Positions 17,466-22,292 of a DNA stretch of 24,654 bases are shown one piece after another. The notes beneath the pieces are model-generated. The model was given only the letters and a program-made list of their open reading frames with translations. It was not told where the DNA came from and searched no databases. A program made the position numbers and the translations under genes. Every line of letters starts with the position of its first letter. The first letter of the stretch is position 1. The stretch comes from a virus (taxonomy: Duplodnaviria; Heunggongvirae; Uroviricota; Caudoviricetes), in the IMG/VR virus record IMGVR_UViG_3300045988_113752, positions 1-24,654 of that record. One strand, written 5' to 3'.

Positions 17466-19766
17466 ATGACGGTCTCAACCGAAGTTGACCACAACGAATA
17501 CACAGGTAACGGCGTTACGACATCATTTCCGTATACCTTCCGTATTTTCAAAAAATCCGACCTGGTTGTTCAGGTGTCTGACCTTAACGGTAACGTTACA
17601 AAACTAGTGCTGGATGCTGGTTATACGGTAACAGGGGCGGGAACTTATAGTGGCGGTGCAGTGGTTCTTCCGTCGCCGCTTGCTGCTGGCTGGCGAATCA
17701 CGATAGAGCGTGTGCTTGATGTGGTGCAGGAGACTGATCTTCGCAATCAGGGAAAATTTTTCCCCGAAGTTCATGAGGATGCATTTGACTACCTGACGAT
17801 GCTGATCCAGCGATGTTTTGGGTGGTTCAGACGTGCATTGATGAAACCATCTTTGCTTGCAAAATATTACGATGCAAAGCAAAACAGAATATCTAACCTT
17901 GCCGATCCATCACTTGAGCAGGACGCTGTAAATAATCGCTCAATGCGTAATTATGTCGATGCTGCAATCGCCGGAGTTATTGGTGGTTTTGGTTGGTTTA
18001 TTCAGTATGGTTCTGGAGCAGTATACCGAACGTTCCAGGATAAGATGAGAGACACCGTTAGTGTTCGCGATTTTGGGGCAAAAGGCGATGGTATAACAGA
18101 TGATACATCTGCATTGATTCTGGCTGCAGAATATGCACGAGAATCATCCAGAACATTACGAGCGGAAGGTAATTTTATTATTACGGAGACATTAAATCTT
18201 CGTAATGTCAGCCTCGAAATGACCAATGCTGTTTTTACCATATCCCACTCAGGGATAGGGGTATTGCTTGGCGGGAATGCATCAAACCCTAACAACCCAA
18301 GACAAAACTTCGGAACGATTATCAGAAATTCTGGTATTTCATCTGAAACGACACCGGATATTCGTATTATCGGGGCAAAAGGGCAGCATATTAACATTGA
18401 GCGTTGCGACTACTTACAGTTATATGCAAACTCTGATGATTCAGTATATGAAACAGATTATTCTATAGCCTACTCAACCTTTAACCTGAAAAAGGTCGAT
18501 ACAATTCATTTTCTTGGTGTAGTTAGAGGTTGGATAAACGAAAACAAGTTTTACCTAAACAGGACAAATAATGTGATTATTGCTGATAATCCGTATTCAC
18601 ATAATCACAACAAGTTTTTTGGTGGAACGATGGAGAATACTGGGGTTATTGACATTCAGCGTGGTAATAATAATCATTTTTACGGACTCCGTTTTGAGCG
18701 CAGACCAGACAACCCAGATGACACACAAAGAATTAATTTTGGTAGTTATACGTGGAATAATTCTGTTCAGGCATCATGGCTTAGCTTTTCTGCATATACC
18801 AATGAACCATATAACCCAAACAATCTTGTAACTGTCACTGATAATGGTAATGGAAATGCTGTATATCATATTCAGGAAGAACTAACTAATGAAGTGTCGC
18901 TTTTTTCAGTGAGTGAGAAAACGCCATTTTTATCAAGCGTTAATATGGGAAGTTCAGATACACCTGATTATGTTACAGATGTAAAAAGTGTGCGAAATTT
19001 AATTCATCTTGTTAATGGTAGTTTTGCTATTGGACGTAACTTCAGGACAATTTGGGAATCAGGTGATATAAGCGTCAGGAATGGCGATGTGTTTGCATTT
19101 ACTTCTGATGTCAGCGCATTCCGCATAAGGGTTTATGGAATTGATGAGAATGGCAGTGTTATTACAAATGAGCCTGAAGGGATTGGTTTTCCAGGGGCTT
19201 CATGGGATGATGAAAACAGTCGTTTTACTACCCAGTCTAACATCGGTAATGCAAAGTTTAGGATAACCGACAAAGGAGGAGTAAAATCAATAAGGGTTGT
19301 CATTCTGTCGGGTGGTAATACATCTGGAATTACCTTCAAATATATCAGATTTACCGGAAGATATTATAAGGATAGTTCTGCGTATCCTCGAAGAAATATG
19401 GATGATCATAATATCCACAGGTCTGGTGCTGTGATGTTTAATTCATCACTTGATGTCAAAATGGAAAATATAGCATCAGGTGTTACCTGTTATGTAAAAG
19501 ATGCATCTGATGTTAAGGTTAATATATTAAGAAATAGATACGTTGTTAAATCGGTGTCCGGGAATACTATATATGTGCGTAACCAGGATGAAATTTCATA
19601 TTCTGGTCCTTATGATGACTTTAAGGTTGCATATACTAGCGGGGCAAAAAATATGATTTCTGATGTTTCAGGAATTTCATCTAATGCAATAAAGTTATCA
19701 GGTAGTGTTCCTTCTGAAATATCAGAAGGAAGCAATATTGATTTGATTAAAATATTAACGAAGTAG
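17466..19766 (+). CDS. Tailspike protein: gp17-like N-terminal anchor plus pectate-lyase-type beta-helix depolymerase domain
   Basis: 766 aa with GGAG RBS. The N-terminal ~150 aa follow the pattern of T7 gp17-type tail fibre N-termini. The central DFGAKGDGITDDTSAL is the hallmark of pectate-lyase-fold tailspikes. The C-terminal half is AT-rich. Confidence 0.8.
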   Translation: MTVSTEVDHNEYTGNGVTTSFPYTFRIFKKSDLVVQVSDLNGNVTKLVLDAGYTVTGAGTYSGGAVVLPSPLAAGWRITIERVLDVVQETDLRNQGKFFPEVHEDAFDYLTMLIQRCFGWFRRALMKPSLLAKYYDAKQNRISNLADPSLEQDAVNNRSMRNYVDAAIAGVIGGFGWFIQYGSGAVYRTFQDKMRDTVSVRDFGAKGDGITDDTSALILAAEYARESSRTLRAEGNFIITETLNLRNVSLEMTNAVFTISHSGIGVLLGGNASNPNNPRQNFGTIIRNSGISSETTPDIRIIGAKGQHINIERCDYLQLYANSDDSVYETDYSIAYSTFNLKKVDTIHFLGVVRGWINENKFYLNRTNNVIIADNPYSHNHNKFFGGTMENTGVIDIQRGNNNHFYGLRFERRPDNPDDTQRINFGSYTWNNSVQASWLSFSAYTNEPYNPNNLVTVTDNGNGNAVYHIQEELTNEVSLFSVSEKTPFLSSVNMGSSDTPDYVTDVKSVRNLIHLVNGSFAIGRNFRTIWESGDISVRNGDVFAFTSDVSAFRIRVYGIDENGSVITNEPEGIGFPGASWDDENSRFTTQSNIGNAKFRITDKGGVKSIRVVILSGGNTSGITFKYIRFTGRYYKDSSAYPRRNMDDHNIHRSGAVMFNSSLDVKMENIASGVTCYVKDASDVKVNILRNRYVVKSVSGNTIYVRNQDEISYSGPYDDFKVAYTSGAKNMISDVSGISSNAIKLSGSVPSEISEGSNIDLIKILTK

Positions 19767-19776
19767 GATTAAATGC

Positions 19777-20091
19777 ATGGAATATAGAACCGGACATTTT
19801 ATTGCAATGGATATAACACCTTTCCTTCATGCGCTTTGTGCTGTGGCCGCACAGATACTGATTGGCCTTTTTACCGGAAACTGGGCTTACGGAGCGATAG
19901 CTGGTTGTACGTTCTTCATTGCGCGTGAACACACCCAGGCAGAATATCGCTGGATTGAAATGTTCGGGCATGGCAAGCGTATGAATATGCCGTGGTGGGG
20001 CGGTTTTGATCCGCGCGTATGGGATGTTGGAAGCCTGTTTGACTTTGTTGTTCCTGTTACTGTTTGTTTTGGTGTTTATTTCTATATTTGA
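19777..20091 (+). CDS. Small hydrophobic membrane protein (hypothetical)
   Basis: 104 aa with aggat 8 nt upstream, starting 11 nt after the tailspike stop. Two to three predicted TM segments and a Trp-rich motif (MPWWGGFDPRVWD). Confidence 0.5.
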   Translation: MEYRTGHFIAMDITPFLHALCAVAAQILIGLFTGNWAYGAIAGCTFFIAREHTQAEYRWIEMFGHGKRMNMPWWGGFDPRVWDVGSLFDFVVPVTVCFGVYFYI

Positions 20092-20313
20092 CTGCTACCG
20101 CGCCATCAAATGGCGCGGAATTCAACTAAGCCTCTATATTTTAAATCATTTCTGTACTGCAATCTCTTCAGAGTTATGTAAAAGGCAAGCCTTATTATCG
20201 ACATGAAAGGAAGGGGATTGACAATGCATGGGTAACAAAAAACCATAAATGGTTTATCATGCGTAATGCCTTTACTATTCAGGAGGTAGTTATGCATATA
20301 AACGGTGGAAAAC

Positions 20314-20718
20314 ATGTCAGCTCAACTAACCAGTGAAACTTTAAATCAGTGGCTTAGCATGAGTTCTCTGGCGGCGGTGATAGCAGGAGTTCCTCCTGAG
20401 GTTGCTTTGGGGGCTTTGGCTGGGGCGGTAATTTTTGTTACCTCTGCGGTAGAGTATCCTATTCGTCGTCGTGTACTCTTGTCGATGCTTAGCTTTCTCT
20501 GCGGCCTTCTTTTTTATAAACCAGCAGCATCAATTCTTATCGGCATAGCCAGCCTGATCCCTACCATCACGCAGGACTCTTTTGAAAAAGGGATTGTTTT
20601 CTCAGCTGGCGCATTCGTGTCAGCAATTGTTGCTGTGCGTATTGGTATATGGCTCTATCACCGTTCCGATAATCCACGCGAGTTAATTCCGGGGAGAAAA
20701 GACGATGGTAACGCATGA
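20314..20718 (+). CDS. Multi-TM membrane protein, first gene of lysis cassette (holin/antiholin candidate)
   Basis: Four hydrophobic segments. The track ORF starts at GTG 20305; ATG 20314 is preferred. Its end overlaps the start of the next membrane-protein gene. Confidence 0.45.
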   Translation: MSAQLTSETLNQWLSMSSLAAVIAGVPPEVALGALAGAVIFVTSAVEYPIRRRVLLSMLSFLCGLLFYKPAASILIGIASLIPTITQDSFEKGIVFSAGAFVSAIVAVRIGIWLYHRSDNPRELIPGRKDDGNA

Positions 20719-21013
20719 GTTTTTTTTGCTTATCACCAATGCAGTTATTTGTACTGGCATAGCAATTCGCGTTGTCACATTCCGGCGTAACGGCTCTCAA
20801 CATCGAAGATGGGGAGGGTGGCTTGCTTATTTCCTTATTGTTGCTGCGGCCAGTATTCCTGTTCGTGTCGTCTATGCAATCTGGTTACGCACGCCAATGG
20901 CTGTGGATTTATCTGAGGTCATTATCAACGCTGTCATGCTTGCCGCGGTTATTAAAACACGCGGTAACGTTGTTCAGATTTTCAAAATATCGAGGTCTAA
21001 ACATGGAGATTAA
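20705..21013 (+). CDS. Holin (putative, three TM segments)
   Basis: 102 aa with GGAG RBS, three hydrophobic helices and a charged C-terminus. Overlaps the endolysin start. Confidence 0.55.
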
Positions 21014-21632
21014 ACAATTCCAGCGAGCTGCTGGTATTAGCGAGGCGCTGGCCGCTCGCTGGTTCTCGCATATAACTTCTGCGATGAAAGAGTTTGGTAT
21101 CAGCAAGGCAGAAGATCAGGCAATGTTTATTGCTCAAGTTGGGCATGAGTCTGGGGGGTTCACCAGGTTGCAGGAGAATTTCAACTACAGCGTTACCGGA
21201 CTGGTGAGCTTTGTCCGGACTGGACGCCTCACCCAGGGACAGGCTAATGCACTGGGGCGCCGCGTTGGTGAACCACCATTGCCACTTGAGCGCCAGCGCG
21301 CGATCGCAAATCTGGTATACAGCAAACGCATGGGTAACAATGCTCCCGGCGATGGCTGGAATTACCGTGGGCGCGGGCTTATCCAGATTACCGGTTTGAA
21401 TAACTATCGTGACTGCGGAAACGGTCTGAAAGTTGACCTGCTGGAGAATCCTGAACTGCTGGCACAGGACGAATACGCGGCTCGTAGCGCGGCCTGGTTC
21501 TTCTCCAGCAAAGGCTGCATGAAGTATACCGGAGATATTGTACGTGTAACTCTGATTATCAATGGTGGCAGGAACGGCATCGACGACCGGCGCGCGCGAT
21601 ACATCACTGCCAGTAAGGTGCTGGCGGTATGA
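21003..21632 (+). CDS. Endolysin, glycoside hydrolase family 19 (chitinase-like lysozyme)
   Basis: Internal ATG of track ORF 20772..21632. [12 protein letters not shown] and [16 protein letters not shown] match the GH19 catalytic signature regions. Confidence 0.8.
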
Positions 21633-22111
21633 TCTGGGCATTCGCAAAAGCATACTGGAAACAGTTGGTTATCATGGCGATGCTTGCTGTTCTGGTCATA
21701 TCAGGAGTTGTCGCCTGGAATGCACACGGCAGTCGCCAGTACGATGCCGGGTATGCTCAGGCGGAAGAAGACCGCAAAGCCGAAGAAGACAAAGTTCGTC
21801 AGCACTACGAACAGGAGAAATCGATCAATGAACGTGAAGCGCAGCAGAGGATCGACCAGGCGCGCAATGATGCTCTTGATGCTGCCGCTCGCGCTGGCCG
21901 GTTGCAGCAACAGCTCGTTGCCATCCGTGAGCAGCTCAGGCACTATAACGCCATTGTCGGCGCTGGGACGTCAGCCGCAGACACCGGAGTTTTGCTTGCC
22001 GACGTGCTCAGTAAATCTCTCGAGAGAAACAGACAACTGGCAGAGTATGCTGACCGGGCAGCCGAAGCCGGAAGAGTCTGTGAAAAACAGTACGACACCC
22101 TGACCAGATAG
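21629..22111 (+). CDS. Rz-like i-spanin
   Basis: Start overlaps the endolysin stop (ATGA). N-terminal TM helix followed by a charged, coiled-coil-like periplasmic domain. Confidence 0.7.
21828..22103 (+). CDS. Rz1-like o-spanin lipoprotein, embedded in Rz in the +1 frame
   Basis: [26 protein letters not shown] has a basic n-region, hydrophobic core and LAGC lipobox. GGAG lies 10 nt upstream. The mature part is Pro/Ser-rich. Confidence 0.6.
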   Translation: MNVKRSRGSTRRAMMLLMLPLALAGCSNSSLPSVSSSGTITPLSALGRQPQTPEFCLPTCSVNLSRETDNWQSMLTGQPKPEESVKNSTTP

Positions 22112-22218: not shown

Positions 22219-22236
22219 ATAATTGAGTGGGAATGA
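22219..22236 (+). other. guaA: Remnant 3' end of guaA (ATA ATT GAG TGG GAA TGA = IIEWE-stop): probable prophage att junction
   Basis: E. coli GuaA ends ...PPATIEWE as I recall it. Here only the last codons are present and the frame is closed by TAA two codons upstream, so the upstream DNA is not guaA. A host-like terminator follows. Confidence 0.45.
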
Positions 22237-22262
22237 TTTTGATCCCTGCACTATGAATGAAC

Positions 22263-22292
22263 AAAACCCTCTGTTACTACAGAGGGTTTTTT
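22263..22292. terminator. Bidirectional intrinsic terminator (AAAA-CCCTCTG-ttacta-CAGAGGG-TTTTTT)
   Basis: Perfect 7-bp stem flanked by an A-run and a T-run, between convergent genes. Confidence 0.7.

Follow-up and report, generated by a model that had tools for sequence, protein, structure and literature searches.

A Uetakevirus-type lysis cassette with a conserved pair of holin-family membrane protein genes, a GH19 endolysin gene and an embedded Rz1 gene

Described lysis cassettes and the locus analysed

The closest described counterparts of the cassette considered here are found in the Uetakevirus phages epsilon15 (gp23 through Rz1), phiV10 (p27 to p30a), SPN1S and TL-2011b, which share all five genes with it, arranged in identical order and with identical overlaps. 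As in the present locus, an attP or attR site lies directly downstream of Rz in these phages. A related arrangement occurs in the P2-like Burkholderia phages KS5, KS14, KL3 and AP3, where a PF16931 gene is followed by an overlapping PF05449 gene directly upstream of the endolysin gene, again as here; the pair is also present in Ralstonia phage RSA1 and Pseudomonas phage phiCTX. Phage P2 itself has an analogous system, in which the class I holin Y, with three transmembrane (TM) segments, is accompanied by LysA, a separate multi-TM timing protein (PMC3091744). Lambda Rz/Rz1 is the prototype of the embedded two-component spanin, with Rz1 encoded wholly within Rz in the +1 frame, an arrangement shared by the present locus.

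The window, i.e., the whole stretch of 24,654 nucleotides of the Caudoviricetes record IMGVR_UViG_3300045988_113752, contains a lysis cassette of five tightly overlapping genes on the + strand at 20314-22111, as seen in the list of open reading frames (ORFs). The cassette and the adjoining prophage end comprise the following features:

20314..20718, + strand: M1, 134 aa, membrane protein of PF16931 (Phage_holin_8) with 3-4 TM segments; putative antiholin or co-holin
20705..21013, + strand: M2, 102 aa, three TM segments, predicted N-out/C-in, basic C-terminal tail; PF05449 (Phage_holin_3_7, formerly DUF754)
21003..21632, + strand: GH19 endolysin (muramidase type), soluble, 209 aa, no signal or SAR sequence
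21629..22111, + strand: i-spanin Rz, 160 aa, N-terminal TM segment at residues 12-30, charged periplasmic domain
21828..22103, + strand: o-spanin Rz1, 91-aa precursor inside Rz in the +1 frame; mature lipoprotein of 66 aa
22222..22238, no strand assigned: attR core, prophage-host junction at the 3' end of guaA

Identity and distribution of the cassette

All five ORFs were confirmed within the boundaries given in an earlier note on this DNA, and all five products match known families well above chance. These family matches uphold that note's reading of the region as a lysis cassette in which genes for two membrane proteins and a soluble GH19 endolysin precede Rz, with Rz1 embedded in the +1 frame; a search of NCBIfam gave a model match for none of the five proteins. 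At the nucleotide level the cassette is 96% identical to those of EC.W1-9 and phiv142-3, 89% identical to that of phiV10 and approximately 82% identical to those of epsilon15 and SPN1S, and it is present in 565 of 5426 complete Escherichia coli genomes (~10%). The prophage ends about 110 bp past the cassette at the 3' end of guaA: phage genomes align as far as position 22238, and prophage-free E. coli genomes align from 22222 on, with guaA beneath the match. The cassette is of the ordinary epsilon15/phiV10-like prophage type, located at the guaA end in E. coli.

Each of its genes falls in a known family, and the gene order has been annotated before; as a finding, the correct reading of a common, previously annotated cassette carries little weight. 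It is probably a canonical three-step Uetakevirus lysis cassette, composed of M2 as the likely holin, M1 as its putative timing partner, the GH19 muramidase and Rz/Rz1. The analysis establishes the gene identities, family memberships and predicted topologies, the strict synteny of M1 and M2, and the constraint that dual coding places on Rz and Rz1.

Expression signals

Neighbouring genes overlap by 14 nt (M1/M2), 11 nt (M2/endolysin) and 4 nt (endolysin/Rz), and this overlap of starts and stops suggests that the lysis genes are translated in a coupled manner. The five genes would be carried on one transcript made late in the lytic cycle. Two features lie immediately upstream of M1:

20243..20268, + strand: conserved upstream block, palindrome CCATAAATGG followed by the -10-like TGCGTAATG
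20292..20336, + strand: 14-codon mini-ORF that follows a strong Shine-Dalgarno sequence (AGGAGG, 20282-20287) and overlaps the M1 start in another frame

The block at 20243..20268 is kept in phiV10, in epsilon15 and in a further prophage of E. coli, with unrelated sequence farther upstream, and an RNase III site is annotated at its equivalent in the epsilon15 record. It may serve the lysis genes as a promoter or as a site of RNA processing. Scanning with a consensus promoter returned sites no more numerous than expected from shuffled sequence. The Shine-Dalgarno sequence and ATG of the mini-ORF are conserved in phiV10 and epsilon15, where the mini-ORF has 6 codons and stops 2 nt ahead of the M1 ATG. 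The start of M1 itself is backed by N-termini across the family. A lambda-type dual-start motif is absent from both M1 and M2, and GTG 20305 was rejected as an alternative M1 start; it would extend the protein by Met-Glu-Asn, none of them positively charged, and is separated from the Shine-Dalgarno sequence by 17 nt.

Endolysin

The endolysin matches the GH19 family PF00182 at 38.8 bits (cut-off 25.5) and phrog_181 at 1.8e-91. Its match to the solved SPN1S endolysin (4OK7) spans residues 1-208 with E=9.2e-116 and approximately 85% identity; the match to PaGH19Lys (9EOI) is at 3.6e-31. The motifs H-E-S-G-G-F and L-Q-E-N are identical in the endolysin and 4OK7. The catalytic residues of PaGH19Lys, a muramidase, have been named (PMC12329726), and in the present protein the catalytic positions are H48-E49 and E58, the two Glu residues aligning at an offset of +2 with E51 and E60 of PaGH19Lys. 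Muralytic activity is known for the close homologues SPN1S and LysSA05 (PMC12391199).

No 19-residue Kyte-Doolittle window in the protein reaches 1.4, so the endolysin has neither a signal nor a SAR segment, as expected of a cytoplasmic enzyme. Together with the PF00182 and 4OK7 matches, this result agrees with its earlier description as a GH19-type endolysin devoid of a signal sequence. Since it carries no export signal, the enzyme needs a holin.

Spanins

Rz matches DUF2514 (7e-43, 146.8 bits) and phrog_312 (1.5e-59), and its hydropathy peaks at 2.37 over residues 12-30, which marks an N-terminal TM segment. Rz1 starts 199 nt into Rz and is therefore in the +1 frame; it ends 8 nt ahead of the Rz stop and is therefore fully embedded. 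Its lipobox L-A-G-C places Cys26 after a 25-residue signal peptide, with Ser at +2, and Pro and Ser are abundant in the mature lipoprotein. The coordinates and sequence thus bear out the earlier claim of an o-spanin gene with an LAGC lipobox lying wholly inside Rz. The Rz1 ATG is preceded by AGGAG 10 nt upstream; a second in-frame ATG at 21867 is a less likely start.

The length of the Rz1 ORF is rejected as evidence by itself because 11% of the shuffles of Rz codon order yield a +1 ORF that reaches 91 aa or more. Only 38 of 20000 shuffles produced a Met with a lipobox after it. Each of the 43 distinct homologous Rz sequences examined, including that of a Klebsiella phage at 85% nucleotide identity, retains the Rz1 ORF with its lipobox and start, and nucleotide diversity is approximately threefold lower in the overlapped part of Rz at every codon position. 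Rz1 also matches phrog_11621 at 3.3e-40. The case for an embedded Rz1 is carried by the lipobox, the conservation and the family match. Both spanins belong to the same family as those of epsilon15, phiV10 and SPN1S, with 94% nucleotide identity to phiV10 for Rz and Rz1, and Kongari et al. 2018 assigned the phiV10 and epsilon15 spanins to their embedded 'Bcep176' family (PMC6139136). Rz/Rz1 is accordingly a predicted two-component spanin of the embedded 'Bcep176' architecture.

Membrane proteins M1 and M2

M2 matches PF05449 over residues 12-94 at 95.3 bits (cut-off 25.4, E 2.2e-27) and phrog_217 at 2e-35, and is approximately 84% identical to its epsilon15 and SPN1S counterparts. Hydropathy places TM segments at residues 6-26, 38-61 and 64-83, and an AlphaFold2 model of low confidence (pLDDT 60) likewise has three helices, in agreement with the three TM segments originally predicted. 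Across the family, the N-tail lacks Lys and Arg, loop 1 carries 3.5 Lys plus Arg and the C-tail 4.1, each TM segment has about one charged residue on average, and an RGN motif is conserved on the predicted cytoplasmic side. By tblastn, the family was found in 229 phage records, generally annotated as holin. On prediction, M2 has the features of a class I holin, namely three TM segments, an N-out/C-in topology, a charged C-tail and a gene overlapping the endolysin start, and it is a probable hole-forming, class I-type holin.

M1 matches PF16931 over residues 7-120 at 46.7 bits (cut-off 26.4, E 4.4e-12) and phrog_198 'holin' at 6e-42, and is 93% identical to epsilon15 gp23. The four TM segments assigned to it in the earlier note are only partly borne out: an AlphaFold2 model of moderate confidence (pLDDT 69) has four helices, whereas by hydropathy there are three hydrophobic stretches (16-46, 54-85 and 94-115), of which two are about 31 aa long and interrupted by prolines. 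Published predictions for M1 homologues give 2, 3 or 4 TM segments; three would put the N-terminus of M1 outside and four would put it inside. The TM segments have a high content of Gly, Ala and Ser, with invariant small residues (G33, G37 and G64) inside those of the family, and the charge pattern comprises an N-tail free of Lys and Arg, a positive predicted cytoplasmic loop and a charged C-tail. M1 had also been regarded as an extra protein larger than typical holins. Neither point stands, as 134 aa falls in the normal size range of holins and M1 belongs to Phage_holin_8, whose genes always lie directly upstream of a PF05449 gene in the complete loci sampled.

A Foldseek search of BFVD with the M1 model returned one borderline match, the family member annotated as 'holin' in Enterobacter phage EcP1 (E=1e-3), the others being non-specific helical proteins. 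Membership of the Pseudomonas aeruginosa pyocin holin Hol (PA0614) in PF16931 was considered and found to be unsupported; the pyocin R holins have been placed in TC 1.E.20, unrelated to the phiCTX type (PMC4684702).

Roles of M1 and M2

According to the preferred reading, M2 would build up in the inner membrane and then trigger at a set time to form large holes, through which the signal-less GH19 muramidase would pass to degrade peptidoglycan. In the last of the three steps an Rz-Rz1 complex would disrupt the outer membrane. M1, whose gene forms one fixed module with that of M2, would serve M2 as a dedicated partner in the membrane and would set the time of M2 triggering as an antiholin-type regulator held in fixed proportion to M2 by translational coupling. 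This role of M1 as the timing regulator of M2 is the best single guess. An antiholin role for M1 is plausible and not a new idea, as homologues of M1 in Burkholderia phages KS5, KS14, KL3 and AP3 have been termed 'putative antiholin' by prediction (PMC3091744, PMC5247547). A search of the accessible literature on PF16931, PF05449, DUF754, TC 1.E.56 and the epsilon15/SPN1S holins found no functional study; the holin and antiholin assignments therefore rest on prediction, and it is by inference that the hole is attributed to M2 and an inhibitory rather than a co-operative action to M1.

The division of roles is complicated by the holin-like charge pattern of M1 and by its holin label in both Pfam and PHROGs. 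The label would also suit the reverse assignment, with M1 as the hole-forming holin and M2 as an antiholin or regulator. M1 is moreover encoded by the first gene of the cassette and is more conserved than M2 within Uetakevirus (93% versus approximately 84% to epsilon15/SPN1S), and the Center for Phage Technology annotated both genes as 'putative holin-antiholin', leaving the assignment undecided. The class I signature, however, is cleaner in M2, with its three TM segments of about one charge each and strongly basic C-tail, while the Gly/Ala/Ser-rich composition of the M1 segments is more typical of packing helices; the DUF754 protein is also the holin in most published annotations, themselves predictions (PMC3091744, PMC5247547). 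A reversal of roles is accordingly considered unlikely.

Further constraints come from the distribution of the pair. The PF16931 gene lies directly upstream of the PF05449 gene in 273 of 275 loci, sampled from both sides via M2 and via M1, and the remaining two are cut at a contig end, so that no complete locus has one gene alone. The scans of viral contigs were seeded also with distant family members. All loci were collected by similarity to a few seed pairs, and lone PF05449 or PF16931 genes in more distant lineages could therefore be missed. The pair persists over 11 clusters at <50% identity, with gene overlaps of 4 to 14 nt, beside endolysins that include GH19, PG_binding_1 plus Muramidase, GH24 lysozyme and L-Ala-D-Glu peptidase types.

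Single-ORF M1-M2 fusions were seen in L216, L224 and P0067, arising from 1-nt changes in homopolymer runs. A programmed frameshift was rejected, since the frame of M2 relative to M1 varies by lineage (14-nt versus 4-nt overlaps), and a fusion would clash with the predicted topologies, in which the C-terminus of M1 is inside and the N-terminus of M2 outside. These fusions are probably sequencing errors or mutants.

The pair occurs in P2-like, lambdoid, N4-like and Casjensviridae phages with wholly different upstream neighbours. This distribution, together with the same-strand overlap of M1 with M2, speaks against M1 acting outside lysis, for instance as a lysogenic-conversion or superinfection-exclusion membrane protein adjoining the cassette by chance. 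Such a role could be imagined from epsilon15 and phiV10, whose genes just upstream encode serotype-conversion membrane proteins, and is judged highly improbable.

The strict co-occurrence bears on the preferred reading as well. The separately encoded antiholins described so far, of which P2 LysA is one, are non-essential. The lack of any locus with M2 and no M1 fits an essential subunit better than a modifier of timing, and M1 shows no homology to P2 LysA, the only separately encoded antiholin with which it was compared (hhalign of the M1 family, probability 0.2%). It is thus possible, albeit not favoured, that M1 and M2 form an obligate two-component (heteromeric) holin in which both proteins would be needed for the hole and neither would be an inhibitor. 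The persistence of the overlapping pair across divergent clusters and several endolysin types points in the same direction, and the invariant small residues that both families have in their TM segments, together with conserved motifs on the predicted cytoplasmic side such as RGN in M2, are compatible with a specific complex. Strict co-occurrence can also be explained by a co-adapted inhibitor that prevents premature lethal triggering, however, and the sampling was seeded from known pairs; the complex itself is a prediction.

More generally, it may tentatively be proposed that PF16931 and PF05449 proteins of Gram-negative phages constitute either an obligate heteromeric two-subunit holin or a holin that is unsafe in the absence of its dedicated partner. 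If so, they would represent a distinct, uncharacterised holin class, its two genes kept together as a single module in podo-, sipho- and myoviruses whatever the endolysin type. That the two genes behave as inseparable in such different phages and beside such different endolysins is of modest value in itself, and the labels 'holin', 'antiholin' and 'membrane protein' are applied inconsistently to its members across hundreds of phage and prophage records.

Comparison with known systems

The cassettes of the Uetakevirus phages are 82-97% identical to that of the window at the nucleotide level and embed Rz1 alike, and the differences are allelic only. The neighbourhood upstream differs: the window has a 104-aa membrane ORF on the + strand, in place of the O-antigen-modifying genes on the - strand of epsilon15 and phiV10. 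The pairs of the P2-like Burkholderia type are more distant, with 18-41% identity and an endolysin composed of PG_binding_1 plus Muramidase. P2 LysA, antiholin-like and with four TM segments, resembles M1 as a separately encoded multi-TM protein, but its gene follows the endolysin gene, unlike that of M1, and is non-essential; P2 Y belongs to PF04550 and LysA has no Pfam match, and the P2 pair is not homologous to M1 and M2. With lambda, the spanins of the window share an N-terminal TM segment in the i-spanin and a Pro-rich o-spanin lipoprotein in which the +2 residue is not Asp. Whereas lambda Rz belongs to PF03245, the spanin of the window is of the DUF2514, 'Bcep176' family, and its mature Rz1, at 66 aa, is longer than that of lambda and has two further Cys residues.

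Lysis cassette and prophage context

The lysis cassette comprises five plus-strand genes with overlapping ends at positions 20314-22111 of the window, and a described family (Pfam, PHROGs) was found for each product.

20314-20718, plus strand: M1, a membrane protein of 134 aa
20705-21013, plus strand: M2, a membrane protein of 102 aa
21003-21632, plus strand: endolysin, 209 aa
21629-22111, plus strand: Rz, the i-spanin, 160 aa
21828-22103, plus strand: Rz1, the o-spanin lipoprotein, 91 aa, within Rz

M1 matches Pfam PF16931 (Phage_holin_8) at 46.7 bits, with a cut-off of 26.4, and phrog_198 ("holin"); M2 matches PF05449 (Phage_holin_3_7, formerly DUF754) at 95.3 bits and phrog_217. The endolysin belongs to GH19 (PF00182; phrog_181 at 1.8e-91), Rz to DUF2514 and phrog_312, and Rz1 to phrog_11621 at 3e-40, the last two PHROGs being labeled "Rz-like spanin". 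An earlier note, made from the sequence alone, had placed and described the cassette correctly, as two membrane proteins ahead of a GH19-type endolysin, with an o-spanin gene (lipobox LAGC) embedded in the i-spanin gene. Lysis is read as following the canonical course from holin to endolysin to spanins.

The late region of an epsilon15/phiV10-like prophage makes up most of the window. Over its 2 kb, the cassette shares 96% identity with Escherichia phages EC.W1-9 and phiv142-3, 92% with TL-2011b, 89% with phiV10, ~82% with epsilon15 and SPN1S, and ~77% with prophage-derived phages of Klebsiella. Of 5426 complete E. coli genomes, 565 contain a match. In the records of phiV10 and epsilon15 the same five genes appear in the same order, embedded Rz1 included. 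Prophage-free E. coli genomes align from position 22222 on, with guaA under the match, and phage genomes align as far as 22238; together these limits place the prophage-host junction (attR core, ~17 bp) at ~22222-22238, 110 bp past the Rz stop and at the 3' end of guaA. A strong bidirectional terminator (22263-22290) is host DNA between guaA and yfgI, and the genes downstream of the junction are yfgI and yfgH.

The M1-M2 pair

Relatives of M2 were detected by tblastn in 229 records of the phage collection, with hosts including Ralstonia, Klebsiella, Pseudomonas, Salmonella, Escherichia and Burkholderia, whereas a single-sequence search recovered M1 relatives in only 37, because M1 diverges faster. 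Profiles of both families (from alignments A1 for M1 and A3 for M2) were used to scan three sets of loci. The first comprised 254 loci with an M2-family gene, namely the window itself, 13 regions from annotated phages or genomes, and 240 IMG/VR loci for which three distant family members had served as seeds. The M2 proteins of this set group into 15 clusters at the 70% identity level and 11 at 50%. An M1-family ORF lies directly upstream of M2 on the same strand in 252 of the 254, and the other two end at a contig edge. The pair was likewise present in 6/6 further phage loci, the weakest tblastn M2 matches included, and in all 15 bacterial loci retrieved with an M1-family query (Budvicia, Morganella, Proteus, Chromobacterium, Ralstonia and Crenobacter) an M2-family ORF follows M1 directly with a 4-nt overlap. 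The view of M1 as an "extra" protein in the earlier note is thus not borne out, since an M1-family ORF adjoins M2 in every locus not cut by a contig end.

The pair was seen in podoviruses (Uetakevirus), lambdoid HK639, the P2-like phages RSA1, phiCTX and Mana, N4-like FSL SP-058, Casjensviridae (Seifer, MA12), phi_D3 (filed under Yuavirus) and an Actinobacillus phage, accompanied by GH19, PG_binding_1 plus Muramidase, GH24 lysozyme or L-Ala-D-Glu peptidase endolysins. This distribution marks the pair as a single mobile two-gene holin module, independent of the endolysin beside it. M2 would act as the hole-former and M1 as its dedicated partner, most likely a timing regulator held at a fixed ratio through translational coupling. 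Because none of the complete loci sampled carries M2 alone, an obligate two-subunit holin formed by M1 and M2 is a serious rival, if a tentative one; reversed roles are possible but less likely, and a role of M1 unconnected with lysis is very unlikely.

Single-ORF fusions of M1 and M2 (216 or 232 aa) were observed in three independent lineages (positions 2087-2737 in each of the sampled loci L216 and L224, and protein P0067). They come from single-nucleotide differences in runs of G or A where the two genes meet and are probably sequencing errors or mutants; a fused product is at odds with the topologies predicted, and the frame of M2 relative to M1 varies between lineages.

Names for these proteins vary. 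In Burkholderia phages KS5, KS14 and KL3 the DUF754 protein was called "holin" and its upstream neighbor "putative antiholin" on the basis of position and TM predictions (Lynch et al. 2010, PMC3091744), a naming repeated for AP3 (PMC5247547). Center for Phage Technology records carry "putative holin-antiholin" for both genes, and PGAP uses "putative holin" and "phage holin family protein". No experimental test of an M1/M2-type pair was found in the searchable literature. P2 LysA is the classic separately encoded multi-TM antiholin-like protein; M1 shows no homology to it (hhalign probability 0.2%).

Topology of M1 and M2

M2 has hydrophobic segments at residues 6-26, 38-61 and 64-83, and its AlphaFold2 model shows three helices at low confidence (pLDDT 60). 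Across the family, the TM segments average ~1 charged residue each, and Lys+Arg number 0 in the N-tail, 3.5 in loop 1 and 4.1 in the C-tail, loop 2 being short and neutral. Class I holins such as lambda S105 and P2 Y are oriented N-out/C-in, and the charge pattern of M2 predicts the same.

In M1, three regions are hydrophobic (16-46, 54-85 and 94-115); the first two span ~31 residues each and are interrupted by PPE and KP. Its AlphaFold2 model (pLDDT 69) contains helices at 3-24, 28-44, 50-79 (kinked at 67) and 92-119. Across the family G33, G37 and G64 are invariant, the N-tail lacks Lys/Arg, and both the loop that follows helix B and the C-tail are positive. Two arrangements fit these features, three TM segments with an outside N-terminus or four with an inside one, and both leave the C-terminus cytoplasmic. 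The four TM segments proposed earlier are therefore possible, given the four modeled helices, but not established, given three hydropathy regions and published predictions of 2 to 4 for homologues (PMC3091744, PMC5247547).

Endolysin and spanins

The endolysin aligns over its full length with the solved Salmonella phage SPN1S endolysin (4OK7, E=9e-116) and with PaGH19Lys (9EOI, 3.6e-31), a demonstrated muramidase (PMC12329726); H48-E49 and E58 match the catalytic E51 and E60 of PaGH19Lys. Hydropathy revealed no hydrophobic segment anywhere in the protein, which argues for a cytoplasmic enzyme relying on the holin. The PF00182 match, the 4OK7 alignment and this absence agree with the signal-less GH19 endolysin of the earlier note.

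Rz1 starts 199 nt into Rz, and thus in the +1 frame, and stops 8 nt ahead of the Rz stop. Its ATG has an AGGAG 10 nt upstream, and the protein begins with a typical lipoprotein signal in which LAGC is followed by Ser at +2. The spanins of epsilon15, phiV10, SPN1S and TL-2011b have been assigned to one embedded family, "Bcep176" (Kongari et al. 2018, PMC6139136). Among 43 distinct Rz sequences from the sampled loci, including phiV10 and a Klebsiella phage (85% nucleotide identity), the +1 ORF, its MN(V/E)KR start and the lipobox are intact in all 43; the +1 frame does contain stops ahead of the point where Rz1 begins, and 9-12 stops interrupt the +2 frame. At each of the three codon positions, nucleotide diversity is ~3x lower in the overlapped part of Rz (0.035, 0.007 and 0.050, versus 0.101, 0.069 and 0.132 in the non-overlapped part), as dual coding predicts. 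ORF length alone is unconvincing, because 11% of codon-order shuffles of Rz yield a +1 ORF of 91 aa or more; just 0.2% contain a Met with a lipobox after it. The intact ORF and lipobox and the lowered diversity bear out the embedding claimed earlier.

Upstream flank

Behind a strong Shine-Dalgarno sequence (AGGAGG, 20282-20287), the ATG at 20292 starts a mini-ORF of 14 codons (20292-20336) that overlaps the M1 start in another frame. phiV10 and epsilon15 share both signals, but there the ORF has 6 codons and its stop comes 2 nt ahead of the M1 ATG. The element is conserved in presence though not in frame or length, and it may act as a leader modulating M1 translation. Further upstream, at 20243-20268, a block consisting of the palindrome CCATAAATGG followed by a -10-like TGCGTAATG is common to epsilon15 and phiV10, the DNA beyond it being unrelated. 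The epsilon15 record annotates an RNase III site at the corresponding place, and the block may serve the lysis genes as a promoter or as a processing site.

A plus-strand ORF of 104 aa (19777-20091) separates the cassette from the tailspike gene. It has 2-3 hydrophobic segments, matches phrog_1443 (function unknown) and has no Pfam or NCBIfam match. epsilon15 and phiV10 instead carry O-antigen-modifying genes on the opposite strand at this place, and the ORF may be a lysogenic-conversion or exclusion gene. The tailspike itself (17466-19766, plus strand, 766 aa) has an epsilon15 gp20-type N-terminal domain (~residues 1-220) matching many tailspike PHROGs, whereas its C-terminal part differs and is pectate-lyase-like; phrog_18162 spans the full length. 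Such a mosaic reflects a usual kind of modular exchange, in which the receptor-binding part is swapped.

Relation to known systems

The cassette is well known and widely distributed, and reference genomes carry annotations for all of its parts: the embedded Rz1, the GH19 endolysin without a signal sequence and both membrane proteins. An antiholin role had already been proposed, at the level of prediction, for M1 homologues. What is added here is the strictness of PF16931-PF05449 synteny across phage types and endolysin classes, which makes the pair a clean and cheap experimental target, though no surprise.
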